A stretch of DNA of 64,000 nucleotides from Nostoc sp. (GTDB lineage Bacteria > Cyanobacteriota > Cyanobacteriia > Cyanobacteriales > Nostocaceae). Location of the stretch: NCBI RefSeq assembly GCF_036917775.1, contig NZ_JBALEQ010000109.1, positions 34,763 through 98,762 on the forward strand. The letters run 5' to 3'. Numbering within the stretch: the first letter of the stretch is position 1; each line of letters opens with the position of its first letter. The notes under the pieces were generated by a model, which was not told the DNA's origin, searched no databases, and saw nothing but the letters and a program-made list of their open reading frames with translations. Of the stretch, positions 2,562-34,811 are shown in pieces. Position numbers and translations under genes: made by a program.

Positions 2562-2572
2562 ATTTATAAGCT

Positions 2573-3349: not shown

Positions 3350-3450
3350 TGGTCATTAGTCATTAGTCATTGGTCATTAGTCATTAGTCATTAGTCATTG
3401 GTCATTGGTCATTAGTCATTGGTCATTGGTCATTAATCATTGGTCATTAG
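3339..3450. repeat. STRR heptamer array (TCATT[A/G]G x16)
   Basis: 16 tandem 7-mers counted; the array runs into the znuC start codon. Confidence 0.95.
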
Positions 3451-4490: not shown

Positions 4491-4546
4491 GGTGTTTTCC
4501 TCCTCAAAATGGATGGAAGTCTATAAGACTTATTCTAAACTTTAGA

Positions 4547-4592
4547 CTATAATAATTCTCATTCTCATTCCCAACACATAATATCATTCTCA
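4547..4592. promoter_or_regulatory. Two candidate Zur/Fur-family 7-1-7 boxes in the znuA/porin divergent promoter
   Basis: Minus strand reads TGAGAAT-T-ATTATAG (4547-4561) and TGAGAAT-G-ATATTAT (4578-4592), resembling TGATAATnATTATCA. Confidence 0.55.
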
Positions 4593-4699
4593 GTTTCCTG
4601 TGTAATGAGTAACAACAAAACTTTGTCAGATGGTACAGTCCTCTGCAATTTAGTTTTCCCTGAATAATTAGGATTTCTTGACTTTTTTTCTTAAAAAGG

Positions 4700-6391: not shown

Positions 6392-6405
6392 TTTTAAAGA
6401 TTCCC

Positions 6406-6440
6406 AAAAAAGACGTAAATTTATCTTTTGCGTCTTTTTT
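6406..6440. terminator. Bidirectional terminator between the convergent porin and DUF6745-like genes
   Basis: aaaaaagacgtaaa / tttgcgtctttttt stem with one G-U pair. Confidence 0.7.
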
Positions 6441-6479
6441 GTGCAATCTCAAAAATAAAACCTAATACAGTTAAGTAAG

Positions 6480-7535: not shown

Positions 7536-7815
7536 AACGCCAACCTTCAGGCTCGTATTCCCGTTGAATTTTCACCATCCAGTCACCTTGGGGAATAGAA
7601 ATAGCTTTATGCTCTTCATGAGCTAGCAATGCCGACTCTGAGAAAACACGCAAGTAGAGTGTGCTATCTTTTTCGTATAATTCGGCGTTTCCCTCAGTAA
7701 TGCGATGCTTATGACCCGTAACTTCGCCTTCTGCCAAAGTTAAGTGAGGTATTTTTTGTCCTTCAATTTGCTGCACAGGCAGTAAAATTACATCACCTTG
7801 ACGAATTGGTTTCAT
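7522..7815 (-). CDS. Small conserved hypothetical protein (RQGDV / AEGEVTGHKH motif)
   Basis: Likely start MKPIRQGDV at 7815; overlaps the next gene by 14 nt; His-rich motifs. Confidence 0.8.
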   Translation of the reverse strand: MKPIRQGDVILLPVQQIEGQKIPHLTLAEGEVTGHKHRITEGNAELYEKDSTLYLRVFSESALLAHEEHKAISIPQGDWMVKIQREYEPEGWRYVAD

Positions 7816-7901
7816 AGTTTTGCTTTCCTGACATGGATACAAACCCTACTTCGCTTTTACTCTCAAATTTGGTTTAATTTTGGCACAAGCTATATGAAAG
7901 T

Positions 7902-7972
7902 GGGAATTGGGCATTGGTCAATAAAATAGTTATTTTTCCCTTCCTTCCCCATTCCCCACTCCCCATTCCCCA
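7902..7972. repeat. STRR heptamers (CCCCA[T/C]T), partly inverted
   Basis: gggaattgggcattgg ... ccccattccccactccccattcccca. Confidence 0.75.
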
Positions 7973-8227
7973 AATTTTAAAACTGTAGTCGCCAATTATG
8001 CGTTAGATAAGTTAAAGATTGAAATAGCTGGAAATTCACACCCAGCGTAGCCTTCTCTATCCTTTGGGACAGACTGGGCCACAAGTTCAGGGGATTTTCT
8101 CCCAAGCAGACAGTTTATGTGAGGATTAAATCACCGCCCTAAGCGCGACCTTTTATCTTGACAATTTGCAAAAATTACCTCAATTTGACTGTTTAGCTTA
8201 GTAGCTATTCTTTTTATTGAAATTTCC

Positions 8228-10888
8228 ATGTCAACTCTCGTCATCGTCGAATCTCCAACCAAAGCTCGTACCATTCGCAACTACTTGCCAGCAGGCTATC
8301 GGGTGGAAGCGTCTATGGGTCATGTGCGTGACTTACCTCAGTCGGCTAGTGAAATTCCTGCTGCCGTCAAGGGGGAAACATGGGCGCAGCTAGGGGTAAA
8401 TGTGGACGCCGACTTTGAACCGGTATATGTTGTCCCGAAAGACAAAAAGAAAATTGTCACCCAGCTTAAAGAAGCCCTTAAAGATGTAGATGAACTGATT
8501 CTGGCAACAGACGAAGACCGGGAAGGTGAAAGCATTAGTTGGCATTTATACCAATTGCTGAAGCCAAAAGTTCCGACTAAGCGAATGGTGTTTCACGAAA
8601 TCACCCAAGAGGCGATCAAAAAAGCTCTAAAAAACTGCCGCAATATCGATGAGCAGTTGGTTCGCGCTCAAGAAACGCGGCGGATTTTAGATCGACTCGT
8701 GGGTTATACCCTATCTCCCCTGCTATGGAAGAAAATCGCCTGGGGATTATCTGCTGGGCGGGTGCAATCTGTAGCTGTGCGGCTTTTAGTCACTAGGGAA
8801 CGCCAACGCCGCGCTTTCCATGAGGGTACATACTGGGATTTGAAAGCCAGTTTGTCAAAGGAAAAAACCCCCTTTGGTGCCCTGTTGGTAACATTGGCAG
8901 GAACCAAAATTGCTAACGGCAGCGATTTTGACGCAGCGACTGGAGAAATTATCGCAGGTCGTAATGTCTTGTTGCTCAACGAAGACCAAGCCGTAGCCCT
9001 CAAGGAACGCCTAACAGGGAAAACCTGGAGTGTTACCGACATCGAGGAACGCCCAGTGACGCGCAAACCGTCGCCACCGTTTACCACCTCGACGTTGCAA
9101 CAAGAATCTAACCGCAAACTGCGCCTCTCAGCCCGCGACACGATGCGGGTTGCTCAGAATTTGTACGAACAAGGGTATATTACCTATATGCGGACAGATT
9201 CGGTGCATTTGTCAGATCAAGCGATCGCAGCTGCTCGGAGTTCTGTAGAAAAGCTTTACGGTCAACAATACCTCAGTCCCCAACCCCGGCAATACACCAC
9301 CAAATCCAAAGGCGCACAAGAGGCGCACGAAGCAATTCGTCCAGCCGGCAGCACTTTTCGCACTCCCCAAGAAACTGGTTTAGGCGGTCGAGAACTTGCC
9401 GTTTACGATTTAATTTGGAAGCGGACTGTCGCCTGTCAAATGGCTGATTCCCGCCAAACTCAAATTAGCGTGCAATTGCAAGTTGAGGATGCTGGATTCC
9501 GTTCTTCTGGCAAACGGATTGAATTTCCTGGATATTTACGTGCTTACGTCGAAGGTTCAGATGACCCAGAAGCAGCACTGGAAGACCAGGAAGTAATTTT
9601 GCCCAATCTGAAAGTGGGAGATCATCCCAATTGTACAGATTTAGAAGCAGTTGGCCACGAAACTCAACCGCCAGCTAGATACACCGAAGCTTCTTTAGTG
9701 AAAACCTTAGAAAGTGAAGGTATCGGTCGTCCCAGTACCTACGCCAGCATCATTGGCACAATCATTGACAAAGGTTATGCCCATTTGGTGAGTAACGCTC
9801 TCATTCCTACCTTCACAGCTTTTGCCGTCACCGATTTGCTGGAAAAACATTTCCCAGACATCGTTGATCCCAGTTTTACCTCAAAGATGGAGCAAACCCT
9901 TGATGACATCGCCACAGGTGAAGCAAAATGGCTGCCCTACTTGCAGAAATTTTATCTGGGAGAAAAAGGGCTAGAAACCCTGGTAAAAGAACGGGAAAGT
10001 CAAATTGATGCCACCAAAGCTAGGACTGTAGAACTAGAGAATCTAGATGCCAAAGTCCGTATTGGTAAATATGGCCCATACATTGAAGTTACAAATGGTG
10101 AGGGGGTAATCACCGCCTCAATTCCCAAAGACTTGACACCAGCAGACCTCGACCCCAAACAGGTAGAAGTATTGCTGCGGCAAAAAACCACAGGCCCTGA
10201 CCAGGTAGGTCGGCATCCCGAAACTGGTGAACCGATTTATGTGAAAATCGGTGCTTATGGGCCTTATGTTCAATTGGGCGATAAAACCGACGAAAACCCC
10301 AAACCGAAACAAGCTTCTCTACTCAAGGGTGTCACCCCAGAAACCGTTACCCTGGAAATGGCTGTTGGTCTGTTGGCACTACCCCGGACATTGGGAGTTC
10401 ACCCAGTCACAGGCAGCAAAATCCAAGCAAGTTTGGGACGCTTTGGCCCTTATGTGGTTCATGACCAGGGTAAGGAAGGGAAAGATTACCGTTCCCTTAA
10501 AGCTGCTGACAATGTGTTGACAATTAGTCTAGAACGTGCATTAGAACTATTGTCAGAACCCAAAAAGGGACGTAGTTCCACCAACAGCAAGTCCAAGGCA
10601 GCCTTACGCGAATTAGGCCCACATCCAGAGGACGGGGAAACAATTAACATCTACGATGGCCCTTATGGTCCTTACATCAAGCATGGCAAAACTAATGTGA
10701 GTATCCCAGAAGGTCAAACTGTAGAAGATATAACTCTGACTGAGGCGCTTAACTTATTGGCAGCTAAGGCATCGACAACGAAATCGACTCGCAAAACGAC
10801 TAAATCAACGACTTCTAAATCTAAGTCAACTGCTAAGTCAACTGCTAAGTCAACGACGGCTGCGAAAAAGAAAGTTACAGAAGGCTAA
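8228..10888 (+). CDS. topA: DNA topoisomerase I
   Basis: [32 protein letters not shown], catalytic ITYMRTDS, C-terminal repeats, Lys/Thr/Ser-rich tail. Confidence 0.98.
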
Positions 10889-20190: not shown

Positions 20191-21555
20191 ATGCAGCAGC
20201 TAAAATCCGCCGAAGAAATTCCTGGTAGCTATGGCTTACCCATTTTGGGGGAGACTTTGGAAATATTTAGGGATTCAGAGTTGTATTTATGGCGACGATT
20301 CCAGCAGTATGGGTCAGTTTTTAAGACGAGCGTTATGGGGCGTAAACGTGCTTATTTAATTGGCCCTAGTGCTAATCGGTTGGTACTGGTGGAACAGGCG
20401 GAAAATATGTCGTCGCGGATAGGGTGGTATTTCCTAGAATCGACATTTGGCAATAATATTTTATTACAAGATGGGGAAGAACATCGCCTAACTCGTCGCT
20501 TGATGTATCCAGCATTTCACGGAAAAGCGATCGCTACATACTTCGATACCATTCAAAATATTGTGCAAGACTTCCTCGAAAATTGGGGAGAACGGGGAAC
20601 GATTTCCTTAAATTCTAGTTTCCGTCAGCTTACCCTGATGGTTGCGACTCGCCTATTTTTGGGAAGTCAGAACAAAAGTGAAGTTGAGCAAACCAGTCAG
20701 TGGTTTACACAACTGTTAGATAGCAGTATGGCGATATTTAAATGGAATGTCCCCTTTACTTTATATGGTCGCGGTCAAAATGCTAGGGGTAAATTAGTGG
20801 CTTTCTTGCGTGAAGCGATCGCCCAGCGTATCGAGCAGGGTAACTTAGAAGAATCAAAAGATGTTTTGGGATTGCTGCTAGCGGCTGTTGATGAAGACGG
20901 CAATAAGTTGAGCGAAACACAGGTAATCAACGAAGCATTACTATTGCTATTTGCTGGACATTAGACAACAGCCTCATTACTGACTTGGGTAATATTTGAA
21001 TTAGGTAATCACCCAGAATGGCGAGAGCGGCTGCGCCAAGAACAATTAGCAGTTGTGGGAAATAATCCCCTTAGCCTGTCTCATCTCAAACAACTTCCAG
21101 ATTTAACTAACGTACTAAAAGAAGCAGAAAGACTCTATCCGCCAGTGTATGCCTATAATCGTGGTGTCCTCAAGGATATTGAGTATGGAGGCTATCGCAT
21201 CCCAGCAGGTTGGTTTGTGACTATTTCGCCGATGCTGACTCACCGTTTACCAGAACTGTACACCGAACCCGATCGCTTCGACCCCGATCGCTTTGCACCA
21301 CCTCGTGAAGAAGATAAGAAACATCCCTTAGCATTAGTGGGTTTTGGTCATGGTTCGCACAGTTGTTTAGGTATGGAATTTGCCCAAATGGAAATGAAAA
21401 TTGTGCTTTCCACACTACTTCGCCATTACGACTGGACAGTAAAACCGGATTATTCTGCGATCGCTCCAGTTCGTCAGCCTTCTAAAATTAAAGATACTCT
21501 CCAAGCATATATTGAGCCTTTGGTGATCAAGCAGCCCTTGAATAGTCAAACATAA
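20191..21555 (+). pseudogene. Cytochrome P450 interrupted by one in-frame TAG at 20962-20964
   Basis: I-helix FAGH*TTA where ETT is expected; same frame continues to EAERLYPP, PDRF and FGHGSHSCLG. Confidence 0.9.
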
Positions 21556-21634: not shown

Positions 21635-23221
21635 TTAGACAGTAAATGTGATACCAGGAGTGATAGCACTTAAGCTGACATCCTCAGCGACAGCAATCAC
21701 ATCACCGAAAATTGGCGAACCGAAGAAGATGACCGTATCTAAGATAGATGAGTCATTTGAAAAAATACCACTACCAATACTATTATTAGTATTGAAGTTT
21801 TGCTGTACAAATGTGTAATCGCTAGCAGAACCGCTAAGAGTGATCTTGTCCCCATCTGTTAGAGAGAAATCTGTGATTACAGCATGACCAGCTTGCCGAT
21901 AGGAGTCACGTAAGCTGAACGTATCAACAGATTGAACCCCTTGAAATAAAACTCCTCCTGTTAAAACATCTATCTCTCCGCTATTAAAATTACCACCACC
22001 ACTGAGGGTATCATTACCCTTACCTCCCGACAGAATATCATTGCCAGAGTCACCATTTAGGCGATCGTTACCTGCATTTCCCTCAACGCGATCGTTGCCT
22101 AATCCGCCAAATAATACATCGTTACCGCTACCGGCTAGCAGAATATCGCTGCCATCGCGACCATTAAGAATTACGCTGACATTTTGGCTGGCACGACTGG
22201 CATCTATGCGATTGCTGCTATCTCCTCCTTGGATTTCGACGTTTTCAATACCTTGGAGGGTATCAGTTCCTGTGGCTGAATCATCGAGATTGGCTCCAGG
22301 GCCAAACTTACCACCTTTGAGTTGGCTTTTATTTGGGTCATTTGCAAATGAGAAAAGCTCAAAGTTATTGTCGCCCTGTATGAATAGGAAGTCTTCACCT
22401 GCTCCCCCGATGTATTGGTCATCACCTGCTCCATCAAAGGCACTATCGGAAAAACTATCTCTCCCGCTTCCACCTTGGATAAAGTCATTTCCTTGTCCAC
22501 CATTAAAATTATTGTTGTCATTTCCCCCTATAAGGGTGTCATTGCCATTATTGCCACGCAGGAAGTTAAATCCCGCTCCTCCTACTATGCTGTCATTCCC
22601 ATCACCACCGTTGATTTGATCAAGACCACGGCTACCTATGATAGTGTCATTACCTGCATCACCAAAGAGAAAAGTTCGCCCTGTCAACAGAGCCTGAGAC
22701 GCATTAATTGTGTCATTACCCGAAGTACCAGTAAGCCTGACATTCTCAACCTCAGAAAATTGGTGAGCTAAATTACCGACAAACAGCTGATTATTGGTCA
22801 AGAAATAATTTGAGGCTCCCTCAACACGCAGTTCGTCATCACCTGCACCGCCAATCAGGGTATCACCAACATCACCGATAGCCGGAAATTTCCCGTTTTG
22901 AGCGATGAGAATATCGTTACCTGCACCGCCATTAACGCGATTGTTTCCCGTTCCACCGATAAGAGTGTCATTGTCATCGCCGCCGTTGAGAGTATCGTTA
23001 CCCGCGCCACCATCAAGGGTGTCTTTGTTAAATCCACCATCAAGAGAGTCGTTACCAAGCGATCCTGATAGAGAATCATTGCCAAAGTTGCCTATTAGAG
23101 TATCATTGCCTGCGCCACCAAAAACCGTATCGTTACCCGTTAGAGCATCGATTCTATCGTTTGCTCCATCAGCTATAATTCTGTCGTCAGCAGGGGTTAT
23201 AGTTCCACTAATAATCGCCAT
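21635..23221 (-). CDS. RTX/haemolysin-type calcium-binding repeat protein
   Basis: Many GGxGxDxL nonapeptides; no N-terminal signal peptide, consistent with type I secretion. Confidence 0.9.
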
Positions 23222-23279
23222 AATCTTTGTATTTCCTTTGATTTACTTGTAAGTTTGTGTATTGTTTTCTTGATTTAGA

Positions 23280-23319
23280 CTTTGGACAAATTTTCTAAAA
23301 AAGCTAGATTTGTCCAAAG
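23280..23319. promoter_or_regulatory. 12-bp perfect inverted repeat in the RTX / HTH-AAA divergent region
   Basis: ctttggacaaat - 16 nt - atttgtccaaag. Confidence 0.45.
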
Positions 23320-23586
23320 CCAAACAACTGCTATTGCTGTTATTACCAGGTTGCCTTTTGAACTCAAAAAGGTAAATGTGGATAATTTAAGGAGTTTGAT
23401 TTCCAAAAAATCAACGATAAAAGGGGTCAGGTAAGGTTAAGTAAGAAAGTTTAAGGACAGTAATATTTGCTGAACCAGACCAGAACTGGATTTCAGCCAT
23501 TAGAATATTATTTGTGAAAAAATCTGGAAAGTTAAAAGTTCAGACTGGATATCAATATATAAATAGTTGTGATTCATCCATGAACA

Positions 23587-25047
23587 ATGGACTTTGAAAC
23601 AGCATTAAAAATATTAGATGCAGCAGTTGTTACTCAGACAAAAAGACACCTGAAGGATATTGAAGTAACCATACTGCGTAGCTCTTGGCAAGGTAAGAAG
23701 TATGACGAAATTGCCCAAACTCATGGCTACACTACCGAATACCTACAGCATGATGTTGGCCCTAAGTTATGGCAGATGCTATCAGCAGCATTTGGTGAAA
23801 AGGTCGGTAAAAAGAATTTTCAAGCAGCACTAGAACGATGGCGCATTTCCTGGACTGCTGCTTCATCAAAAGGGTTAGAGCCAATTTTACAATCTCAAAA
23901 GCTGATGTCATCTTCACAGCTAACAATGGAGAAAATGACATTGAACAACTCAGTTTCTGAGGAAAATAGCGAGGCATTACTAAGCGTATACACAAACGAG
24001 CAACCCCTACAGAATGCAGAAACAGAATTACCTGTAGGTCAAGTCCCTCTCGCTTCTAGTTTTTATGTTGAACGCCCTCCAATTGAAGATCGCTGTTATC
24101 AAGAGATTTTGCAGCCAGGTTCCCTAATTCGGATCAAAGCACCTAGACAAATGGGCAAAACCTCGCTCATGGCTAGGATTCTCAATGAAGCCAGACAACA
24201 TGGTTGTCAAACAGTTTCTATAAGCTTCCATCTAGCAGATAAAGCAGTTTTCGCCAGCTTGGATACATTTTTGCGCTGGTTCTGTGAAAGTGTTGGTAGG
24301 AAACTGAAGCAGCTTCATCAGTTAGATGATTATTGGAGTATTTATGGCAGTAAGGATAAAACTACTGCGTACTTTGAAGAGTGTTTGTTAGAAGAAATCG
24401 ATAGCCCATTAGTAATTAGCTTAGATGGTGTCGATCGCATTTTTCCCTATCGTGACACAGCCGAAGACTTTTTTAACCTGTTACGAGCTTGGTATGAGTA
24501 TGCTAAGTATGGCGATCGCAGTAGCGAACTCTGGAAAAAACTCCGGCTAGTTTTGGTACATTCTAAAGAAGTTTATATTCCGCTAAATATCAATCAATCT
24601 CCCTTTAATGTGGGGTTGAGCATTGAATTACAAGAGTTTACTCCAGAACAAGTCCAAATTTTAGTTGCACGTCATCAAGGGCTAAATTGGACTGATACAC
24701 AGGTCAAAAAACTGATGGATATGGTAGGAGGACATCCCTATTTAATCCGGCTAGCTCTTTATCATGTTCAACATCAGTACATCTCTCTTGAGCAGTTGTT
24801 ACAAACAGCCCCAACTGAAGCGGCAATTTACCAGGATCATCTGCGAGGACATTTGTGTAATCTTGAACACGATCCAAAGTTAGTGACAGCTTTTAGCCAA
24901 GTTGTGAAGAGTTTAGTACCGATAGAGTTAGACTCAGAATCAGCGTTTAAATTACACAGCATGGGTCTAGTTGTATATTGTAATGACAATAAGGTGATAC
25001 CACGCTGCGATTTGTACCGCCAATATTTTCAAAATCGCCTGGCTTAG
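23587..25047 (+). CDS. N-terminal HTH plus AAA_35-type P-loop ATPase
   Basis: HTH-like SWQGKKYDEIAQTHGYTTEYL...GPKLWQMLS; Walker A APRQMGKTS; Walker B VISLDGVD. Confidence 0.82.
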   Translation: MDFETALKILDAAVVTQTKRHLKDIEVTILRSSWQGKKYDEIAQTHGYTTEYLQHDVGPKLWQMLSAAFGEKVGKKNFQAALERWRISWTAASSKGLEPILQSQKLMSSSQLTMEKMTLNNSVSEENSEALLSVYTNEQPLQNAETELPVGQVPLASSFYVERPPIEDRCYQEILQPGSLIRIKAPRQMGKTSLMARILNEARQHGCQTVSISFHLADKAVFASLDTFLRWFCESVGRKLKQLHQLDDYWSIYGSKDKTTAYFEECLLEEIDSPLVISLDGVDRIFPYRDTAEDFFNLLRAWYEYAKYGDRSSELWKKLRLVLVHSKEVYIPLNINQSPFNVGLSIELQEFTPEQVQILVARHQGLNWTDTQVKKLMDMVGGHPYLIRLALYHVQHQYISLEQLLQTAPTEAAIYQDHLRGHLCNLEHDPKLVTAFSQVVKSLVPIELDSESAFKLHSMGLVVYCNDNKVIPRCDLYRQYFQNRLA

Positions 25048-25065
25048 TATAGTTTTGCGAATTAT

Positions 25066-25137
25066 TGTAGAGACGGCGATTTATCGCGTCTTTGTGATCT
25101 AGAATTTTCATCAAAAAACCTTAACCGAACCGTATTG
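25066..25137. repeat. GTAG-type REP-like hairpin plus ccttaaccgaaccgtattg motif
   Basis: tgtagagacggcgatttatcgcgtct at 25066-25091; related copies at 35045, 49304 and 52953; second motif also at 34961 and 52983. Confidence 0.8.
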
Positions 25138-25139
25138 GG

Positions 25140-27506
25140 ATGTATCCGACGAGCAAAGCAGAAAACTCGCCTTACAAATATCAAATCGGAGGGAGTCTGC
25201 AAATTGATGCTCCGTGCTACGTGCAGCGACAAGCCGACAAAGATTTTTATGATGCACTCAAGGCTGGAGAATTTTGTTATGTCTTCAACTCGCGGCAGAT
25301 GGGTAAGTCTAGTCTGCGAGTGCAAACCATGCGTAAACTGCAAGCAGATGATATTGCTTGTGGTGTGATCGATATTACAGCGATTGGAAGTCAAGATATT
25401 ACCCCATCTGAGTGGTATTTGGGTGTGTTACGAAGGTTAGCACGTAGCTTTATTCCCAAATTCAAAGTATTGAGTTGGTGGAGCGATCGCTCTGGATTAT
25501 CACCAGTGCAACGCTTGAGTGAGTTTATTGAGTCGGTGCTACTGGCAGAAGTCTCTGAAAATATCGTAATTTTTGTAGACGAAATTGATAGCATTCTCAA
25601 ATTAAACTTCAAGGATGATTTTTTAGCTTTGATTCGAGCTTGCTATAACAAACGAGCCGACAATCAAGCTTATCAGCGTCTTACTTTTGCACTGCTAGGG
25701 GTAACTACTCCCTACGATTTGATTCAAGACAAACACCGAACACCTTTTAATATTGGTCGAGCAATTGAACTAAGCGGCTTCCAATGGCATGAAGCTCAAC
25801 CATTAGCTGAGGGATTAGTAGGTATTATCAATCCTCAGATTGTGTTGCAAGAGATTTTAGCTTGGAGTGGCGGTCAACCTTTTTTAACTCAGAAGCTTTG
25901 TCAGTTAGTTATTACATCTTTCTCTGTCATTCCAGCAAATGGGGAAGCAGAGTATATTGAGAAACTTATACGTTCTCAAGTGATTGAAAACTGGGAATCC
26001 CAAGATGAACCGGAGCATCTGAGGACGATTCGCGATCGCATTTTGAAAAGCGAACGGCATACTAAAAAATTACTGCGACTCTATCAGCAAATTTTGCAAA
26101 CGGGCCAAATCACAGCAAATAACAGTCTTGAGCAAATGGAATTGCGTCTATCAGGATTGGTAGTTAAGCAACAGGGTTACTTAAAAGTTTATAACCCCAT
26201 TTATGCTGCTGTTTTTAATCAAAATTGGGTTGATAAAGCTTTATTTGACTCACAATCACTAGCAACACGGCAAAAATTGCCTAGCCAGCGATCTTTTCAA
26301 GCTGTGCTGATGTTAGCTGTGGTTGTTACAGCCTCGATCATGGGAGCGCGGCATCTTGGACTATTACAACCTTTGGAGCTAAAGGCTTTTGACCAACTGC
26401 TGCGGCTGCGTCCTAGCGAACAACCAGATCGCCGCCTTTTAGTAGTTGCGATCGCGGAAGATGATTTTAAGCTTCCTGAACAGCAAGACAGAAAAGGGTC
26501 GCTTTCAGATCGCGCACTGGCTCTAATTGTGCAGAAACTCGAAAAGTTCAAACCACGAGCTATTGGCTTAGATATTTATCGTGATTTCCCTGTAGAAGCT
26601 AAGGAAGCATCTTTAGCTAATTGGATGCGACGTAGCGATCGCTTTATTGCTATTTGCAAAGTCAGCGAACCGACAATTAATGAACCAGGAGTTTCACCCC
26701 CTCCCGAAATTCCTAGAGAACGTCAAGGCTTTAGCGATTTTGTTCAAGACACAGATGGTATTCTCCGCCGCCATTTGATCGCTATGCAACCAAGCGATTC
26801 ATCCCCTTGTACTACGCCATACTCCTTCAGCGCTCAATTGGCATTTCGTTATCTACAAACAGAAGGCATTGATATCAAGTACACCAAAAAAAAAGATTTA
26901 CAAATTGGTAAAATTGTGTTTAGGCGGTTGCGAGTGCATATTGGTGGCTATCAAAAAATGGATGACTGGGGCTATCAAATATTGCTAAATTACCGTTCCT
27001 CTGGCTCTCCCTTAAAGGCTGTGGAGCAAATTACCTTAAAAGAGTTGCTCAGAGGTGCGATCGATCCCAATATTGTGAAGAATCGAATTGTACTTATTGG
27101 TATTACGAACCAAAGCGCCGGTGATTATTTTTCTACCCCTTACACTACCGAGCATAAGCAGGAAATACCAGGAGTTATGGTTCATGCTCAAATGGTGAGT
27201 CAAATTCTCAGTGCAGTTTTAGATGGGCGAACCCTGTTGTGGGTTTGGCCCGTTTGGGGTGAGAGTTTGTGGGTCTTTTTCTGGTCTGTTTTGGGAGGAA
27301 TATTGGCATGGCGGATTCGTCATTCCTGGATTTTAGGAATAGCCGGAGTTGCTGTAATTGGTGCTATATCCGCAATTAGCTTTTTTATACTGCTGAAAGG
27401 TATTTGGATACCGCTAATTCCGGCTGCGATCGCTCTGGTCGTTACAGGCAGTATTGTAGTAATTTACAGCCTTTCTCAAGGCAGTAACAGCAATAAATCT
27501 ATTTAG
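25140..27506 (+). CDS. AAA_35-type ATPase fused to a CHASE2 sensor domain and C-terminal TM helices
   Basis: Walker [10 protein letters not shown], Walker B IFVDEID, TM helix, CHASE2 motifs ([36 protein letters not shown]), three TM helices. Confidence 0.88.
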
Positions 27507-27615
27507 CCAGTAAAGGTTTGCGAAAATACCTTTTATGCTTTTGAAGATATAAATAGCCTTTATTATATTTATCCTAGCCATTTCAAGGATGTAAAAACAT
27601 TGAGTTAGTGGTGAT

Positions 27616-28374
27616 ATGAGCTTAGGTCTTCGACAACTTAAACTTGCCTTTGCGATCGCTTTGGTATCGTTCTGGTTCACGCCAGTGCAAGCACAGCCAA
27701 TCAAATCTGAAGTTCTCCCATCGTTGATTTTTAACGCACCTCCTCCCCCAGATGACATTAACGCACCAGGTAATCGCGTTGGAGGAGGTAAGCGCGGCTG
27801 CGAAAACATGGACAAGCAGTTTAGTACATCCAAAGGAAAGCTACTAACAGCGTTAGTTCCGGTTTATCCGTTTCCAAATGCAGAATTAGTCTTTGGATTA
27901 ACAACTAATTCTCATCCAACTTTCTGGTTTTACGTTCCTGATCTAACCGCAGTTTCCACAGAGTTCGTCCTACAGAATGAAGCGGGGCAGACTGTATATC
28001 AAAGCCCTGTTTCGCTGTCTGGGCTACCAGGAATTATTAGCCTCTCTCTGCCATCAACGGCTTCCTCGTTAGAAATTGGCAAGCGTTATCATTGGTACTT
28101 CAATATTTACTGTCATCAACAACAACCACCTGTTTTTGTTGATGGTTGGATTCAAAGGGTCGAACCTAACGCTCTTCTAAAAAGTCAGTTAGATAAAGCA
28201 ACACCAAACCAGCGCATCGCTCTTTATGCCACAAATGGTATTTGGTACGAGTCCCTGACTGCTTCAGCCGAACTTCACCGTCTAGACCCAAAAAGTGCTG
28301 ATTGGGCTAAGATATTGCAAACTGTTGGTCTAACTGACATTGTTGCAGAACCAATAGTAGACTGCTGCCAATAG
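27616..28374 (+). CDS. DUF928 family exported protein
   Basis: Signal peptide, APGNRVGGGKRG, LTALVP, PTFWFYVP, YHWYF, GIWYESL. Confidence 0.85.
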   Translation: MSLGLRQLKLAFAIALVSFWFTPVQAQPIKSEVLPSLIFNAPPPPDDINAPGNRVGGGKRGCENMDKQFSTSKGKLLTALVPVYPFPNAELVFGLTTNSHPTFWFYVPDLTAVSTEFVLQNEAGQTVYQSPVSLSGLPGIISLSLPSTASSLEIGKRYHWYFNIYCHQQQPPVFVDGWIQRVEPNALLKSQLDKATPNQRIALYATNGIWYESLTASAELHRLDPKSADWAKILQTVGLTDIVAEPIVDCCQ

Positions 28375-28431
28375 CTATAACCGAATGGCACGCTTGTTAA
28401 TCGCAAAGCCCTGATATAAATTGCTTTTTGA

Positions 28432-28504
28432 GTGTGGGGAGTGTGGGGAGTGTGGGGGGTAAGACTTCTTCCCCGTCCTCCCACACCTCCCACACCTCCC
28501 ACAC
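28432..28504. repeat. Inverted short tandem repeats between convergent genes
   Basis: (agtgtgggg)x3 ... (cctcccaca)x3 can form a hairpin. Confidence 0.7.
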
Positions 28505-28545
28505 CCTGCCCTGACGAGGTTTCAGCTTTTCTTAGTGCCATTCAG

Positions 28546-31404
28546 CTATAACCAATTGCCCACTAGGACGTAAGGTGCCCAAAATATGGGATGTTGATAC
28601 TTAGGGTTCTTTAATAAAGCTAATTGAGCTTGACGGAGTGCTTCGGCTTTAGTCAGCTGTTTGCTAATTAATTCTCCGTAGAACTGACTCATCAGTTCTG
28701 CTGTGGATTTATCATCCACATTCCACAAAGAAGCAAGGGTGCTGCGTGCCCCTGCCCGTACAGCTATCCCAGCAAGTCCTAAAGTCGCCCGCTTATCCCC
28801 AGCAGCAGTTTGGCAGGCGCTAAGAACCAGTAATTCGATCGCACCAGCTTTTTCGCTATCTCGAATCCGAAGTAGGCTATCTAACTGATTGACGTTGATC
28901 CGACCATCCCAGGTGAGAATAAACGTCTCCTCTGCTTTGGAACTAAACTGGCCGTGAGTTGCAAGGTGGACTACAGAGAAAAAAACAGAATTGATTTCTT
29001 TTTGGAAAGTTTTACTAGTAAATTCTTGATTGAGAAGCACTGTAGTCGGGACTTCAGACTTAATTTGATTCAACTCAAGCGCTACATTGCTAAGAGCAGA
29101 AAAGCCCTGACGAGCTTCAGTTATTCCGGCAGTCAAAACTTTTATTTGTTGTTGTGACAAAGACTTTGGGGCTAATAATTGTAACCCTGGAGTCAAAGCG
29201 ATCGCATATTTCTCGATCAGATATTGTTGACCGTCGTACAGAGCAGCCATTGGAATATTTCGCAAGGAACCATCCAAGACAAATACCAAAGTTTTGATTT
29301 GGGATTTGACTAAGTTTTGCTGTGCTGGTTGCAGCAGCCAATTATATACCTGCCTGGATAATGACTGAGTTTCTTGCAGTGTGTAAGGTTTGATCAGTTT
29401 TTGTCGCAATTGTTCTAAAGTTTTTTCCACTTCCATTGCAGTGATAGCGGTTTTGTAATGGCGCAACGGTTGTTGAGGTAACTTGAGAATAACTTCTAGT
29501 TTGTCTGCCAAAATAATTGGATAGATAACTGCTGCCGTCGGATCTTTTTGATCGATAACAGAGTCAATTTGGATTGGTTTTCCTTCCAAGCAAGCAACCC
29601 GAAAGAAGTTGTCAAGTTCAGCTAGTTGTAGAGATTCAATAACGGCGCGAGCTTGGATTAGGTTCTTTTGGGAGTTTCCTTCTGATTCCAACAGCAAATT
29701 GACCAACTGCCGATAGATTGGCTCTACTTCATCTCGAAAAGAAAACTGTACCTCTGGATTAATCGCAACTAAATCGTTGCGAAGGGACTGAAGGATTTTA
29801 ACTGATTCGGTGTAAGCTGCGATCGCCCCCTTAATATCTCCCTGTGCTTTCAGTAAGCGTCCTAGCTGCCATTGCCAGCGATAGGTAATATCTGGCACAT
29901 TGATCGCTTGGGATAGAATTAGGGCTTGCTGGGTGAGTTCTTGGGCGCTACTAATTTGTTGGGTCTGTTCGTATAATCCTCCCAAATTTCCCAGTGCATA
30001 AGCAACTGAGCGCTGGTCTTGTAAATCTTTGGCTTGTTGAACTGCTATAGCCAAAAGCTGGGCAATTTCTTTCACTTCGTGCCCGTTTACGCCTTTAGCT
30101 CTTAATTTCATGAGACTTTGAGCAAAGTTAATTCGAGCATAAATCGTCTTGCGACTGGAAGGCAAATTGGGGATTTGAAGTTGAATCTGAGACACCAACC
30201 CTTGAGCAGCAGTTAATTGATTGTCATCCAACAGTAAGTGAAGTTGATTCAAATCAGCTTGGATGCGTGTAGTTAAAGAGGTAGAGGTAGCGGCAGCCTG
30301 TTGATAGTAATTTAGAGCGGCTGGAATATCGTGCTGGGCTGTGGCGGTGTTGCCTAAACTGAGCCAAGTTTCACTGATTGTTTGAGGAGATTGCTCTGGC
30401 ATTCGCATTGCCACCTCTAAACTCTGCTGCAAAATTTGTCGAGATTGTTCTAAATTGCCAACTATTTGCAATACATTGCCAAAACTACGCAATCCCGTAG
30501 CTTTGAGAGTTGAGTCTGGTTCATTTTGCAAGTTTTGGTTAATCTCAGTTAATATTTTCTGGGCTTGACGATAATGCCCCAAAGTTTGCAATGCTTGGGC
30601 AGAGTTAATCTGGCTGCGGATTAAGTTAGTCTTGTCTTCTATCTGTGCATAAATTGCAGCTGTCTGTTGCCAGGTATTTAAAGCTGATTCAGCTTTTCCT
30701 TGTGCTAACTGTAGCCGACCTTGAATATCTAAAGCTTGGGCTAAAATTTGCGTGAGGGAGGCTGGCTCGGTAAAAGTGTTTATATTTTGTCCAGTCTGTA
30801 ATAGATTAAGACTTTGTGCGTGAAGCGAAGCGATCGCATTGCGAATCGCTTGACTGGCTTTAGACCACTCTCCTAATTGTTGATAAGCCAAGGAGAGATT
30901 GCTCAAACTCATGGCTTCCCTGAGTTCATCCTTTTGAGCTTTGAAAGCGATATATGCTTGTTGAAAGACTAAAGATGCTTCATAAAAACGTTCTGTTTCA
31001 TATAAATTTTTGCCCTGTTGAAATAACTCTTCGGCATTAGTTACACCTTGAACGAAGAGGCAGGGAGAAGAGAGTAGAGAGCAGAGGGGAATGACTTCTG
31101 ACTCCTGCTGTGAACCGAAGCGGAACATGGATTTAAGTCCCCCACTTAATAGAAGTGGTTTTTGTGGCTGTGGGGTCGAATCCCTATCTGAACTATCTCC
31201 CTTGCTCCCTGCCCTCTGCTCCCTTGCCTCTTTTTCAATAAGAGAGTTTTGGGCAGCTATAAAAGCGAAAGTAGGCGGTAATATACTAGTGGTTAAAAAC
31301 ACAACCAAGAGTAAGACTAGAATTCCCGAACGATTCACTTTTCTGTGTAAATACTTCAACAGACGGCGGATTCTCCAGAAACAGAAACCATTATTTCTTT
31401 TCAC
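28546..31404 (-). CDS. TPR plus CHAT (caspase-like) protease with a signal-peptide-like N-terminus
   Basis: TPR helices; catalytic His in VHLATHG and Cys in LVLSACQT; SLWNVDD and WAPYVLVGNWL. Confidence 0.92.
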   Translation of the reverse strand: MKRNNGFCFWRIRRLLKYLHRKVNRSGILVLLLVVFLTTSILPPTFAFIAAQNSLIEKEAREQRAGSKGDSSDRDSTPQPQKPLLLSGGLKSMFRFGSQQESEVIPLCSLLSSPCLFVQGVTNAEELFQQGKNLYETERFYEASLVFQQAYIAFKAQKDELREAMSLSNLSLAYQQLGEWSKASQAIRNAIASLHAQSLNLLQTGQNINTFTEPASLTQILAQALDIQGRLQLAQGKAESALNTWQQTAAIYAQIEDKTNLIRSQINSAQALQTLGHYRQAQKILTEINQNLQNEPDSTLKATGLRSFGNVLQIVGNLEQSRQILQQSLEVAMRMPEQSPQTISETWLSLGNTATAQHDIPAALNYYQQAAATSTSLTTRIQADLNQLHLLLDDNQLTAAQGLVSQIQLQIPNLPSSRKTIYARINFAQSLMKLRAKGVNGHEVKEIAQLLAIAVQQAKDLQDQRSVAYALGNLGGLYEQTQQISSAQELTQQALILSQAINVPDITYRWQWQLGRLLKAQGDIKGAIAAYTESVKILQSLRNDLVAINPEVQFSFRDEVEPIYRQLVNLLLESEGNSQKNLIQARAVIESLQLAELDNFFRVACLEGKPIQIDSVIDQKDPTAAVIYPIILADKLEVILKLPQQPLRHYKTAITAMEVEKTLEQLRQKLIKPYTLQETQSLSRQVYNWLLQPAQQNLVKSQIKTLVFVLDGSLRNIPMAALYDGQQYLIEKYAIALTPGLQLLAPKSLSQQQIKVLTAGITEARQGFSALSNVALELNQIKSEVPTTVLLNQEFTSKTFQKEINSVFFSVVHLATHGQFSSKAEETFILTWDGRINVNQLDSLLRIRDSEKAGAIELLVLSACQTAAGDKRATLGLAGIAVRAGARSTLASLWNVDDKSTAELMSQFYGELISKQLTKAEALRQAQLALLKNPKYQHPIFWAPYVLVGNWL
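31055..31232. mobile_element. MITE-like insert with heptamer-derived imperfect terminal inverted repeats, in frame within the CHAT gene
   Basis: aagaggcagggagaagag... and ...ctccctgccctctgctcccttgcctctt; encodes a low-complexity stretch after the signal peptide. Confidence 0.5.
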
Positions 31405-31517
31405 ATTCTTGCCCTCAATGCCCTTTGCGTCTTTGCAAAAGATATCTGGTCTTACGCTGGCAATCTATTTACTAGTCATTCATGATAAGCAAGTGGGCGT
31501 AGATAATTGCCTATTGC

Positions 31518-31574
31518 TCATTCCCTATTCCCCATTTCCTATTCCCTATTCCCCATTCCCCATTCCCCATTCCC
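31518..31574. repeat. STRR heptamer array (CCCCATT/CCCTATT)
   Basis: About 8 tandem 7-mers. Confidence 0.9.
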
Positions 31575-31600
31575 AACAATAATTATTTCCGCCAACCAAT

Positions 31601-34318
31601 TTAGTCTTGTTGCCACAAATTGCATGATTCTGGAGTCAACCCAGAATTATTGGATGTGACAGTGGGTGCAGAAGCTATGAGCAGCACCTCGCCATTTTTA
31701 CCTATTACCCACCCTTGAGCTTCGATTATAGGAGCGGGGAGAGGAGGAGATGCGATCGCATTTCTTCCTGTCCGAGAGCGACTTATTTTCGGGTCAAGAG
31801 TAACTAAATTTACCTCAATTGCATCACCCTTAAGTATCTCATTGGGATTGTCTGGCAAGCCGCCGCGTCCTGTGGTAACAAAACTACTAGTCTGCTCACC
31901 TCTGGGAGTACAGCCTTGAGCAATTTGTTGTGAGGCATCAACTAAATTTGTTGGCAGTTGGGCTAATCCCCGACTAGGGTCAACATCAGATGTAGTAATT
32001 TTTACATTTCCACTGAACTCACGACTTACCCCTGTAGCGGTAATATCACTCGTTTGCTCGGATGGCAAATCTCGCAGTTGAGTCCCAAAAATACTTTGGG
32101 CATTAATTCTGACATTTCCTCCACGGAAGTTAGTAGAATTAGCGCTGATGTCACTATTTTGATCGGCAACTAGAAAATCAGTGTCAATGTTGATATTACC
32201 ACCGATGACATTTTCTCCAGTGGCGTTAGTTCTGATGTTACTATTGCTACTCATCGCCAAAATTTTTGAGTTAATACTAATTGTCGCCTGCTCTAAGTTG
32301 GGTTCCACTTGAACGTTGCGTGTATTAGCGCTGAGTAAGGCGTTGTTGTTTAAGCGGATAAAGTTTGCATTTACTGTCATGTTGCCTGCGGTTCCTGTTC
32401 CAGAACTCTGCACGCTGACCCTAGCACCATCTCGCACTAGCAACGTATTAGTTGTAATAGTCAAATCTCCTGCATCCCCTGTTGAGTTTGGCTGTGCTGA
32501 AGTAAACAAGCCACTACCAAACCGATTATCTGCGCTTCTACCAATCAGCTGCACGTCAAAAGCATCAACGGTTAAATTTCCCCCTTTACCCGCACCAAAT
32601 GTACTCGTAATGACCTGTGCCCCTCCTTGAATGAGCAATTTCCCTGTGCTAATTGTCATGTCTCCTGCATCTCCGGTTGAGCCTGGGTTTGCTTGAGTAA
32701 GCAAGAAGCTAGTACCAGTCAGTTGTAAAATATCTGCTTTTATAGTCAAATTCCCACCCTTGCCTGTCAGAAGTGTACCAGCGCTAACTGATGTCCCATC
32801 TTCTAAACGTAGGTTGTTAGTGTTAATTGTTATATCACCTGCTTTTCCTGGGCCAAGTGTTGAAGCGCTAATCCGTCCCCCTTTCTGCATTAATAACTCA
32901 TGAGTATTAATTGTCAGGTCGCCTGCATCACCTGTTGAGTCTTGGGCAGCGCTAGTAAACAAACCAGTGTTACCAACAATTTGTATAGAATCAGTGGCAT
33001 TCACTGTCAAGCTTCCTGCCTTACCCTCACCGAAAGTTGCAGTCGTAATTTCAGCTCCCCTTTCCAACACTCGTAAATGTTGAGTATTAATTGTCAAATT
33101 CCCCGCATCACCTGTTGCTCCTGACTGAACTGTAGTTATTAAATCGCTACTAATGACTTGTACAGAATTTTGAGCATTAATAGTTAAATCTCCACCTCTG
33201 CCCGCACTTAATGTACCAACAGCAACTTGCACTCCATCCTCCATAAGGAAGTCACGGGCGTTGACGATTAGATTCCCCCCCTTTCCCTTTGCTTGTTCGC
33301 GTACATTATTGAAGACAAAGCTCCTTTGCCTTGCAACTTTTATTTCTCCTGTAGCATTGAGCGTAATATCTCCTGCCACAGAGCTAACTGAGCCTAAACC
33401 TTTTGCAATACCGGCACTTAAGAAACTTCCTCCCAAAATCTCTATATTTCGGGCATTGGCTGTAATACTACCACCACCTCCACTTTCTACACTTACACCA
33501 GCACCATTAGTTAAAGATATATCTGCTCGCGTTACGTTATCAGGAAAGCCCAAACTTAAATTGTCGCCATCGACTTGAAGCCCTACAGTTCCACTGGCGG
33601 ACAATCCTCCCAACTCGACTCTGCCACCATAAGCATTTAGTTGACCGCCATTCATGCTGATATTCCTGCCTACTAGCAGCAAACTTTTACCATCTGGAAC
33701 ACGTAGACCAAACGAATTTTCACCTGCTGGAGTTAGTCCGGCTGGCGAGGTTGAGTTATTTTGAATGGATGCAGCAATTTGATTGAAGAGTAAAGCGGAA
33801 GGATTGACTGTCAGCAAAGGCGAGGGTGGTTCTGGATTGTCAGCGCTCAAAATACCTTGAGTTCCAAATTGTATGGCTTTGGCAGTAGTGGCAACAAAGG
33901 AACCACGTATATCTAAACGCGCATTTTGCCCAAAAATAATTCCATTCGGATTGAGTAAAAACAGATTGGCTGTACCGTTGGCTTGAATCAATCCATTAAT
34001 GTTAGAGATAGACGAACCTGTGACTCGACTGATTATGTTCTGAATATCTGTAGCATTGTTGAAGATCGCTGTACCTCCAGTTTGGACAGAAAATTGATCA
34101 AAGCTGTGGAACAAATTTTTACCCCGCGTTGCTCCGCCCGAAATTACATTAACGGCGGAATCGGGAGTTTGGGGTGTAACTATAGAACTTTCAGATCCTA
34201 AAGTGGCATCGGGTACGAGCTGGGCTACCGTGGATTCACAACAAGCGATCGCTCCACCTATCATTAACCCACTTACCAAGTACGATGTCCACCTGCAACT
34301 GCGATCGCTTGTAAGCAT
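31601..34318 (-). CDS. Filamentous haemagglutinin N-terminal domain (TpsA-like) secreted beta-helix protein
   Basis: Signal peptide, NLFHSFDQFSV, NIISRVTG, NLFLLNPNGIIFG, repeated GDAGNLTI units, C-terminal GRGGLP and EAQGW. Confidence 0.92.
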   Translation of the reverse strand: MLTSDRSCRWTSYLVSGLMIGGAIACCESTVAQLVPDATLGSESSIVTPQTPDSAVNVISGGATRGKNLFHSFDQFSVQTGGTAIFNNATDIQNIISRVTGSSISNINGLIQANGTANLFLLNPNGIIFGQNARLDIRGSFVATTAKAIQFGTQGILSADNPEPPSPLLTVNPSALLFNQIAASIQNNSTSPAGLTPAGENSFGLRVPDGKSLLLVGRNISMNGGQLNAYGGRVELGGLSASGTVGLQVDGDNLSLGFPDNVTRADISLTNGAGVSVESGGGGSITANARNIEILGGSFLSAGIAKGLGSVSSVAGDITLNATGEIKVARQRSFVFNNVREQAKGKGGNLIVNARDFLMEDGVQVAVGTLSAGRGGDLTINAQNSVQVISSDLITTVQSGATGDAGNLTINTQHLRVLERGAEITTATFGEGKAGSLTVNATDSIQIVGNTGLFTSAAQDSTGDAGDLTINTHELLMQKGGRISASTLGPGKAGDITINTNNLRLEDGTSVSAGTLLTGKGGNLTIKADILQLTGTSFLLTQANPGSTGDAGDMTISTGKLLIQGGAQVITSTFGAGKGGNLTVDAFDVQLIGRSADNRFGSGLFTSAQPNSTGDAGDLTITTNTLLVRDGARVSVQSSGTGTAGNMTVNANFIRLNNNALLSANTRNVQVEPNLEQATISINSKILAMSSNSNIRTNATGENVIGGNINIDTDFLVADQNSDISANSTNFRGGNVRINAQSIFGTQLRDLPSEQTSDITATGVSREFSGNVKITTSDVDPSRGLAQLPTNLVDASQQIAQGCTPRGEQTSSFVTTGRGGLPDNPNEILKGDAIEVNLVTLDPKISRSRTGRNAIASPPLPAPIIEAQGWVIGKNGEVLLIASAPTVTSNNSGLTPESCNLWQQD

Positions 34319-34664
34319 CTGAGAATTTACCTGTTGAACGAAATTCTGCCGCGCAGTCCTGGTAACTAGAAGTGGCGGCTAAATGAATGAGACTTTCCCC
34401 ATCTTTGTGAGTTTGAAAGTTTTGATTTTTTATTAGAAGAAAAATAGACGAAACCCATAGACACGGAGCGGCTACTCTACGAGTTCTCCAACGGAGTCCC
34501 GCAACATAGCACAGAAAGAAGTCTAAAAATTTGGTACAGCCTCACAAAAAAATGGTATTACCTATTGAAAATGTTGAGGAGGGGGTAAAGGCAAAATATT
34601 GAAACTAAGTACAGCATTTTATTAATTCGTAGCGAATTAGATTTGGCAATCTAGTGCAATGCCA

Positions 34665-34811
34665 ATGCGTCAGCTTGCATTGTTAATGCGTTGGCTTGCA
34701 TTGTTAATACGTTGGCTTGCATTGTTAATGTGTCGGCTTACATTGTTAATGCGTTGGCTTGCATTGGTAATGTGTTGGCTTGCATTAGTAATGCGTCAGC
34801 TTACATTAAAA
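34665..34811. repeat. 21-nt tandem array x7 (ATGCGTTGGCTTGCATTGTTA consensus)
   Basis: Units start at 34665, 34686, 34707, 34728, 34749, 34770 and 34791. Confidence 0.95.

Follow-up and report, generated by a model that had tools for sequence, protein, structure and literature searches.

The stretch of DNA described here, referred to below as the window, comprises 64,000 nucleotides of a Nostoc sp. genome (NCBI RefSeq assembly GCF_036917775.1; contig NZ_JBALEQ010000109.1, positions 34,763 to 98,762 of the forward strand) and is part of contig C109 of the 7.7-Mb draft. Its central feature is a block of six genes arranged around two neighbouring STAND-like ATPases, one of which is fused to a CHASE2 sensor domain. 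The block begins on the minus strand with a 528-residue RTX repeat protein (21635–23221; HemolysinCabind, Pfam E-value 6e-54). An intergenic region of 365 bp (23222–23586), which holds an inverted repeat, separates it from three divergently oriented plus-strand genes. These encode a 486-residue ATPase with an N-terminal helix-turn-helix (HTH)-type domain, here termed type A (23587–25047; AAA_35, E-value 1e-141, residues 149–483); the 788-residue ATPase–CHASE2 fusion, termed type B (25140–27506; AAA_35, E-value 9e-32, residues 18–360; CHASE2, E-value 5e-67, residues 396–721); and an exported DUF928 protein of 252 residues (27616–28374; E-value 5e-58). Convergent with them, on the minus strand, are genes for a predicted exported TPR-CHAT caspase-like protease of 952 residues with a GTG start (28546–31404; CHAT, E-value 1e-59) and for a TpsA-type exoprotein of 905 residues (31601–34318; two-partner secretion (TPS) domain, PF05860, E-value 3e-55, together with TIGR01901). 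All six open reading frames (ORFs) had been placed at these coordinates, with these domains, in an earlier note on this DNA, and checks of the ORFs and of their Pfam matches bore them out. The same checks agree with its statements that the block is free of histidine kinases and response regulators, no such domain being found by Pfam in the six genes, and that the window encodes no TpsB transporter; no ShlB match falls in the window, beside TpsA or elsewhere, and every ShlB/TpsB match sits on other contigs, at several loci.

The type B protein has the appearance of a membrane receptor whose output is an ATPase. Its AAA_35 module (Walker A GKS; Walker B VDEID) is followed by a membrane helix (approximately residues 385–409), the CHASE2 domain and a C-terminal hydrophobic block (728–781). 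Because hydrophobic segments flank CHASE2 and no signal peptide precedes the ATPase, the ATPase is predicted to be cytoplasmic and CHASE2 to be extracytoplasmic. No kinase, cyclase, GGDEF or other output domain was found at the C-terminus, where the protein ends soon after its last membrane segment, and the N-terminal AAA_35 module is the sole cytoplasmic module; the kinase-free output that had been claimed for the system fits this architecture. The fusion is apparently rare but widespread. A query spanning the AAA_35/CHASE2 junction found it in six of 401 sampled cyanobacterial genomes, which include members of the genus and of the family of the window as well as of one other family and one other order, and roughly a hundred clusters carry it among the best 120 matches listed from protein databases. 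The closest protein relatives, among the matches listed, are from Nostoc strains.

The type A protein consists of an N-terminal helical HTH_VMAP-M9 domain (residues 1–94), a disordered linker (92–144) and an AAA_35 module. In an AlphaFold2 model built from 26 homologues (mean predicted local distance difference test score, pLDDT, of 82) the AAA_35 module comprises a nucleotide-binding P-loop domain, a helical lid and a winged helix, and the N-terminus is confidently modelled as five helices. Foldseek matched the model to the NRC4, Sr35, Roq1 and RPP1 resistosomes, to Avs3/4, to CED-4/Dark and to ORC/Cdc6, with E-values ranging from 2e-6 to approximately 1e-3. These structural matches to NLR, Avs, apoptosome and ORC proteins suggest that AAA_35 is a STAND/ORC-type switch ATPase and not a generic AAA protein, STAND and ORC/Cdc6-type AAA+ folds not being cleanly separable by this approach. 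In the alignment of homologues the GKT of Walker A is invariant and Asp280 of Walker B is conserved. The two ATPases of the window are paralogous, with approximately 24% identity over 338 residues, and a sequence search of the Protein Data Bank gave no significant match for the ATPases, CHASE2 or DUF928. The N-terminal domain of type A had no match in the Pfam copy used. Its orthologues carry a precomputed PF26355 (HTH_VMAP-M9) annotation, and the orthologous partners at two other loci have a GerE/LuxR HTH above the Pfam cut-off. With the five modelled helices, these annotations support the N-terminal HTH that had been assigned to this protein in the earlier note.

Six adjacent pairs of type A and type B genes are present in this genome, and their AAA_35 modules fall into two clearly distinct subfamilies with identities of at least 34–36% within a type and 21–27% between types. 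The heads of the type A proteins in this genome are CHAT caspase-like, XRE-type HTH (HTH_3), TIR (TIR_2) or HTH_VMAP-M9 domains, and the partners of AAA_35–CHASE2 proteins in other genomes carry a GerE/LuxR HTH or EAD4, or include an extra TIR-ATPase. Type B proteins begin with the ATPase and bear C-terminal sensors that include PAS, TPR, GUN4 and CHASE2, while another type of sensor is made up of a membrane helix, a coiled coil and WD40 repeats. Some of the pairs occur without TpsA or CHAT. The pair therefore appears to be a general sensor/effector design in which type A supplies an exchangeable head and type B the sensor. Effector, ATPase and sensor are not on one polypeptide here, the head and the sensor being carried by two paralogous proteins, and by analogy with sensor/helper NLR pairs the effector–ATPase–sensor logic of NLRs would be divided between the two paralogues. 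In the type B paralogues on contigs C154, C59, C16 and C128 a single hydrophobic helix and a coiled coil lie between the ATPase and the WD40 array, an arrangement in which, to judge from the sequences, the WD40 propeller would be extracytoplasmic.

The conservation of the gene set was followed at 16 loci that encode an AAA_35–CHASE2 fusion, the window included. The fusion proteins of the other 15 are from approximately 86% down to approximately 38% identical to that of the window, and the loci come from Nostoc, Calothrix, Dulcicalothrix, Coleofasciculus, Stenomitos, Leptothermofonsia, a marine cyanobacterium and five reference genomes. A type A AAA_35 gene is found near the fusion in all 16, usually immediately upstream and 6–8 kb away in two. 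At five loci (L010, L012, L013, L014 and L015) the two genes overlap or are 1–35 bp apart, and this spacing makes them look co-expressed. DUF928 stands beside the fusion at 14 loci; a TPS exoprotein lies within 10 kb of it at 12, and an exported TPR-CHAT protein within the same distance at ten. RTX genes are present at seven loci, in approximately four independent cases, a C39-type ABC exporter at four (with HlyD alongside in two) and an adjacent TpsB at one (L015). The corresponding chance per random 20 kb of this genome is 1.8% for DUF928, 3.1% for CHAT, 4.2% for TPS and 5.4% for RTX. The order and orientation of the genes vary between lineages across the 16 loci, and this shuffling argues for selection for co-location and against simple inheritance. 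At four loci (L016, L017, L029 and L032) the ATPase pair and DUF928 are kept and CHAT and TpsA are absent. From these counts and the 20-kb background, the core of the system is most simply read as the ATPase pair with DUF928, TpsA and CHAT as a frequent but separable arm, and RTX/type I secretion as a recurrent optional companion.

The six-gene block proposed in the earlier note is thus retained in part: five of the genes make up a genuine conserved system, and the RTX gene, found at seven of the 16 loci, is an optional neighbour that recurs. A functional linkage of the genes is supported, since the set stays together, in varying order, in distantly related cyanobacteria. Adjacent at nearly all loci, the two ATPases can be regarded as the dedicated pair that had been suggested, and independent occurrence in related genomes, for which a neighbourhood comparison had been proposed as the check, was not seen for the core. 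Two strains of Coleofasciculus chthonoplastes (L012 and L013) have different versions of the genes at one chromosomal site, which in both is flanked by genes for kinase-Pilin_GH, RDD and SpoIIM proteins. In one version TPS and an RTX metalloprotease accompany the HTH-ATPase and the fusion; in the other, TPS, CHAT and DUF928 accompany the HTH-ATPase and a fusion with an added C-terminal cyclase.

The DUF928 protein has a clear Sec signal peptide on inspection of its N-terminus. Its AlphaFold2 model (pLDDT 78) shows a disordered tail, an immunoglobulin (Ig)/fibronectin type III (FN3)-like beta-sandwich and a four-helix bundle, and an Arg-Gly in the disordered tail is near-invariant in the family alignment. 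Foldseek returned only generic Ig/FN3-like beta-sandwich matches for this model and no specific structural relative, so that a link between DUF928 and MtxA, which had been considered, was not supported. Nine CHASE2 proteins are encoded in this genome, and six of them have DUF928 next door. Two of these six have a cyclase as output and one has a hybrid histidine kinase; one ends in a kinase-like tail, one has a caspase-like domain and lies beside DUF1822, and the sixth is the ATPase fusion of the window. Of the remaining three, which lack such a neighbour, two are Ser/Thr kinases and one is a PAS-GGDEF protein. The presence of DUF928 beside CHASE2 receptors of such varied output suggests that it belongs to the CHASE2 sensor and not to a particular output, and both this genome and the 14 fusion loci that carry it are in keeping with the claim that DUF928 goes with CHASE2.

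Several other CHASE2 and DUF928 genes of this genome deserve description. On contig C153 (28000–45000) two CHASE2/DUF928 sets lie side by side. The first, composed of DUF928, a CHAT-CHASE2 protein, DUF1822 and an unannotated 287-residue ORF, resembles the EACC2-caspase system (Kaur et al., 2021); the second has DUF928 and a TpsA of 1120 residues together with a CHASE2 protein that ends in a kinase-like tail. The nearest CHASE2 relatives of the type B receptor are parts of proteins of approximately 770–830 residues, which, judged by ORF size, probably have a caspase-like N-terminus like that of the C153 copy. A DUF928 paralogue of 350 residues in the region of contig C113:137790–138407 carries five tandem repeats of approximately 20 residues (ATGGASRGxLFTPS) ahead of the conserved domain, so that the near-invariant Arg-Gly of the family is present there in multiple copies.

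The TPR-CHAT protein begins with a hydrophobic signal or anchor (approximately residues 23–51), which is kept in four orthologues, including those of Calothrix, Leptothermofonsia and Dulcicalothrix, and continues with a lineage-specific linker of approximately 70 residues, TPR repeats and the CHAT domain (681–950). All four orthologues retain His817, within a THG motif, and Cys864, within SACQ. The conserved signal or anchor points to an extracytoplasmic location for the predicted protease, and the signal-bearing CHAT protein with intact His and Cys that the earlier note described has held up. The possibility that its start had been called too far upstream, making the signal artefactual, was rejected, all four orthologues beginning with a hydrophobic signal. 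A phmmer search gave no significant match to solved CHAT structures and returned only generic TPR repeat proteins. The TpsA protein has an N-terminal signal peptide by inspection, a TPS domain with the NPNG motif (LNPNGI), beta-helix repeats and a C-terminal motif, C...F-TGRGGLP...EAQGW, which is common to the TpsA proteins of other loci.

A connection between these two proteins is suggested by contig C55 (1–10000), where a TpsB gene (POTRA_2 and ShlB; 1537–3369, minus strand) is divergent from an ORF of 1681 residues (3543–8588, plus strand) that contains a TPS domain, a full CHAT domain at its end and a glycosyltransferase-like stretch at the called start. This ORF would be a natural fusion of two proteins that are separately encoded in the window, and its occurrence as a single ORF beside TpsB links TpsA with CHAT. 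The C-terminal motif of TpsA is absent from the fusion. This loss would fit a role for the motif region in docking to, or being cut by, a separately encoded protease, as we infer for the window proteins. Stand-alone TpsA and CHAT clusters are found in this genome on contigs C60, C100 and C32. A conserved small gene between TpsA and CHAT was considered and rejected, the ORF in Dulcicalothrix being a split TpsA C-terminus and that in Leptothermofonsia being unrelated. The periplasmic TPR-CHAT of Myxococcus DdvA, which has been studied by experiment, is a precedent for a domain of this kind in signalling across the membrane; it has been proposed to act as a signal sensor, and DdvA controls a phage-defence island (PMC11506125).

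The RTX protein carries the calcium-binding nonapeptide repeats of HemolysinCabind in seven stretches. It had been described as exported: the RTX repeats are there, but no N-terminal signal was found and no type I secretion genes (ABC exporter or membrane-fusion protein) are among the window genes scanned, so that its export can only be presumed. Within the loci L011 and L031 there are ABC and HlyD genes that resemble those of type I secretion. The ABC exporters at 15065–18118 of L031 and at 2561–5287 of L032 have an N-terminal cyclic-nucleotide-binding domain before a C39 peptidase-like domain, and that of L031 follows two RTX genes and a peptidyl-prolyl isomerase (PPIase) gene and precedes an HlyD-type gene. 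We regard RTX as a facultative accessory and as a possible regulated target of the HTH domain, a reasonable although unproven idea. The intergenic region between the RTX and type A genes has a mean column identity of 87% across four strains whose RTX proteins are 73–93% identical to that of the window, and within it, at 23280–23319, is the inverted repeat CTTTGGACAAAT(16)ATTTGTCCAAAG. An operator shared by RTX-bearing loci was considered and rejected, as the inverted repeat occurs only in close relatives and none is shared across lineages.

Further repeats were located by a tandem repeat finder. Between the convergent operons lies a hairpin, (GAGTGTGGG)x3 + (CCTCCCACA)x3, at 28428–28509, which is probably a two-way terminator; Rfam matched it only to generic hairpin (microRNA, miRNA) models, all below their gathering scores. 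Approximately seven tandem copies of a 21-bp unit (AATGCAAGCCAACGCATTAAC), each containing AATGC-N8-GCATT, occupy 34664–34807 on the minus strand, 346–489 bp upstream of the TpsA start. A second array of this unit, with eight copies and the same flanking sequence, is located at the very end of a contig (C67:49267–49434), which suggests that the array may be a repeat element. None was present in the other ten loci checked, and a conserved regulatory site upstream of TpsA was rejected on that ground. Between TpsA and CHAT (31506–31574) the heptamer CATTCCC is repeated eight times; this array and the nonamer hairpin are similar to the short tandem repeats that heterocyst-forming cyanobacteria commonly carry.

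The block is flanked on one side by genes for a TetR regulator, a Rieske protein and a split cytochrome P450, and on the other by those for a CCG-domain protein, fabF, a transketolase and a beta-lactamase-like protein. Its base composition is not unusual, and no marks of mobile elements or of a defence island were found around it, the neighbours being housekeeping genes. The P450, just upstream of the block, is divided between two plus-strand ORFs (20191–20964 and 21055–21555) that match profile positions 2–275 and 312–440, and is probably a frameshifted or interrupted gene. A second STAND-like gene of the window (49392–50468, plus strand; 358 residues) has an nSTAND1 match and a weak AAA_35 match and is followed directly by an 800-residue ORF with no Pfam match (50471–52873, plus strand); the two may constitute another two-gene ATPase system.

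Taken as a whole, the locus is best explained, in our opinion, as encoding a split, membrane-spanning, NLR-like (STAND) receptor, an explanation to which we assign about an even chance. CHASE2 and the exported DUF928, the latter as co-receptor or ligand carrier, would sense a periplasmic or cell-surface event, and the signal would cross the membrane to the STAND ATPase module at the N-terminus of CHASE2. This sensor module would bind ATP, change shape and nucleate a hetero-oligomer with the adjacent paralogous type A protein, its effector or helper, and the clustered HTH domains of type A would then alter transcription, with the neighbouring RTX gene or the operons of the block itself as potential targets. 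TpsA would be exported by a TpsB encoded elsewhere in the genome. The TpsA and TPR-CHAT arm, acting upstream or alongside, would probably produce or condition the signal, for instance by proteolysis at the Arg-Gly motifs of DUF928 and TpsA; from the distribution of the genes it is a separable surface arm and is not expected to be an obligatory step.

A number of observations count against this explanation. Walker B of type A has no conserved second acidic residue, the position after Asp280 being variable. A profile search with the N-terminal domain of type A found no sequence match to solved HTH proteins, and a profile comparison of this domain with the GerE-type head of the orthologue in Stenomitos detected no similarity. 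In many relatives the domains are arranged as TIR, HTH_VMAP-M9, AAA_35, and from its position between TIR and ATPase the HTH_VMAP-M9 domain could be an adaptor rather than a DNA binder. Some relatives of the fusion carry a C-terminal cyclase after CHASE2, and in these CHASE2 may signal mainly to the cyclase. TpsA or CHAT is missing from four to six of the 16 loci. Finally, only three of the four strains compared retain the 8-bp core of the inverted repeat (TTTGGACA/TGTCCAAA), which Calothrix NIES-2098 has lost.

The split-receptor explanation was weighed against several others. An immune or conflict system, in which CHASE2 and DUF928 detect envelope attack by a phage or competitor and the ATPases trigger defence or death, with the HTH domain as an adaptor or a switch for defence genes, is partly compatible with the receptor, and we consider it a serious, if on balance unlikely, possibility. 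Some of the domains found as type A heads, namely TIR, caspase-like CHAT and EAD4, are characteristic of predicted conflict systems (PMC7159879; PMC8195603); Avs3/4, which are antiviral STAND proteins, and the plant resistosomes are among the closest folds; and DdvA, with its periplasmic TPR-CHAT, controls a phage-defence island; the probable caspase-like N-termini of the nearest CHASE2 relatives, as judged by ORF size, and the C153 copy beside DUF1822 point in the same direction. The copy in the window, however, has an HTH-type head only and no enzymatic killer domain, it lies among housekeeping genes free of mobile-element or defence-island marks, and the PADLOC defence library gave a generic TPR match only, the ATPases, CHASE2 and DUF928 being unmatched.

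The linear relay of the earlier note, in which CHAT acts on TpsA, DUF928 conveys the processed product to CHASE2, and the ATPases hetero-oligomerize and switch on RTX, draws on the same conserved gene set and on the Arg-Gly motifs of DUF928 and TpsA as possible protease sites. RTX is also commoner at the fusion loci than its background of approximately 5% would predict, ABC and HlyD genes are found inside L011 and L031, and the RTX/HTH intergenic region is well conserved in the four strains. A relay of this kind is nevertheless improbable, in view of the four loci that keep the ATPase pair and DUF928 without CHAT and TpsA, the absence of RTX from nine of the 16 loci and the lack of an operator common to RTX-bearing loci of different lineages. 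Stand-alone TpsA and CHAT clusters on C60, C100 and C32, ATPase pairs without TpsA or CHAT, and different gene contents at one site in the two Coleofasciculus strains would all be expected if the ATPase pair with CHASE2 and DUF928 and the TpsA/CHAT pair were simply two unrelated neighbouring modules. Against this, TPS at 12 and CHAT at ten of the 16 loci, across orders and in shuffled arrangements, compare with an expected 3–4%. The inside-out version of this idea, in which the ATPases control the export or assembly of surface proteins and send no signal into the cell, agrees poorly with the properties of STAND ATPases, which are oligomerizing switches and not export motors, and the fold matches are consistent with a switch. 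We judge this last pair of ideas very improbable, the least credible of the accounts considered; like the relay, it is less likely than the split receptor and the immune system.

Among known systems, the split receptor is closest to the NAIP-NLRC4 inflammasome and the plant sensor–helper NLR pairs, with which it shares the STAND fold (nucleotide-binding domain, lid and winged helix), a sensor on one paralogue and an effector head on the other, adjacent genes, and exchangeable heads (TIR, caspase-like, adaptor and HTH). It differs in that the sensor half is predicted to be integral to the membrane and to expose CHASE2 outside the cytoplasm, the window copy has a helical HTH-type head and not a killing enzyme, the AAA_35 sequence family takes the place of NACHT or NB-ARC, and hetero-oligomerization is inferred here. 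Avs, the antiviral STAND proteins of bacteria, are relatives that consist of a single chain. MalT of Escherichia coli is a single soluble STAND ATPase with its own sensor domain and a C-terminal LuxR-like HTH, in which inducer- and ATP-dependent oligomerization activates transcription. Two orthologous type A partners likewise carry a true GerE/LuxR HTH; unlike in MalT, the type A head is N-terminal and the ATPase is not followed by a sensor domain, the sensor being carried by a second, membrane-bound paralogue. With CHASE2 receptors that have C-terminal outputs (the cyclases on contigs C94 and C149, kinases and GGDEF proteins) the type B protein has in common the CHASE2 domain and the membrane topology, and with the cyclase and histidine-kinase receptors of this genome also the DUF928 neighbour, but its output module is an N-terminal ATPase switch in place of a second-messenger or phosphorylating enzyme; some relatives of the fusion hold both an ATPase and a cyclase.

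Two-partner secretion systems of the FhaB/FhaC type offer a further comparison. The TpsA gene conforms to this type in its TPS domain with an NPNG motif, in its predicted beta-helix exoprotein and in the several ShlB-type transporters of the genome; it departs from it in having no TpsB beside the gene, in its distinctive conserved GRGGLP...EAQGW C-terminus and in its association with an exported CHAT protease, to which a paralogue is fused. EACC2-caspase–CHASE2 systems with DUF1822 and a sigma factor of the extracytoplasmic function (ECF) type have been predicted (Kaur, Iyer, Burroughs & Aravind, 2021; PMC8195603), and in these, as in the type B protein, a cytoplasmic output module at the N-terminus is joined to CHASE2 at the C-terminus. 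The N-terminal module here is a STAND ATPase and not a caspase, and the partner is an HTH-ATPase and not a sigma factor with DUF1822, neither of which is encoded in the block. The same paper does not mention DUF928; citing Leipe et al. (2004), it does mention a STAND 'MNS clade (Npun2340/2341 family)' with varied N-terminal effector domains. DdvA of Myxococcus resembles the present system in having an extracytoplasmic TPR-CHAT with a His-Cys dyad that is tied to inner-membrane signalling (PMC11506125), but there the TPR-CHAT is fused to a membrane-spanning transducer, and here it is a separate exported protein beside TpsA. In the literature searched, STAND clades, EACC2-caspase–CHASE2 systems and the CHASE2 domain are described only in outline, neither a ligand nor a partner is defined for CHASE2, no function is given for DUF928, and no account was found of AAA_35–CHASE2, of its partner ATPase, of the link to DUF928 or of the whole system.

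The window is a place where the CHASE2–DUF928–TPS/CHAT set and the paired AAA_35 ATPases are physically fused. It provides a concrete and widely conserved instance of the CHASE2–DUF928 pairing, in which the output is an NLR-like ATPase pair with a head of predicted DNA-binding type and not a kinase or a cyclase, and the conserved Arg-Gly motifs of DUF928 and TpsA offer candidate targets for the exported caspase-like protease. Sister pairs with TIR and caspase-like heads in the same genome form a comparative series, in which one ATPase scaffold may be wired to different outputs. More broadly, and more tentatively than for this one locus, filamentous cyanobacteria may possess a family of transmembrane two-protein NLR-like receptors, in which an extracytoplasmic sensor, here CHASE2 with DUF928, drives the ATP-dependent joining of a sensor ATPase to a helper ATPase and the exchangeable head of the helper sets the outcome; this would be transcription here and NAD cleavage or proteolysis in sister copies. 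If true, the system would be an inner-membrane signalling route that operates without phosphorylation, second messengers or regulated anti-sigma proteolysis. It would also be the bacterial equivalent of sensor/helper NLR pairs, taking its input from the cell surface, and would carry the logic of such plant and animal immune receptors over to receptors exposed to the periplasm. Should the mechanism hold, it would represent a new principle of bacterial transmembrane signalling.

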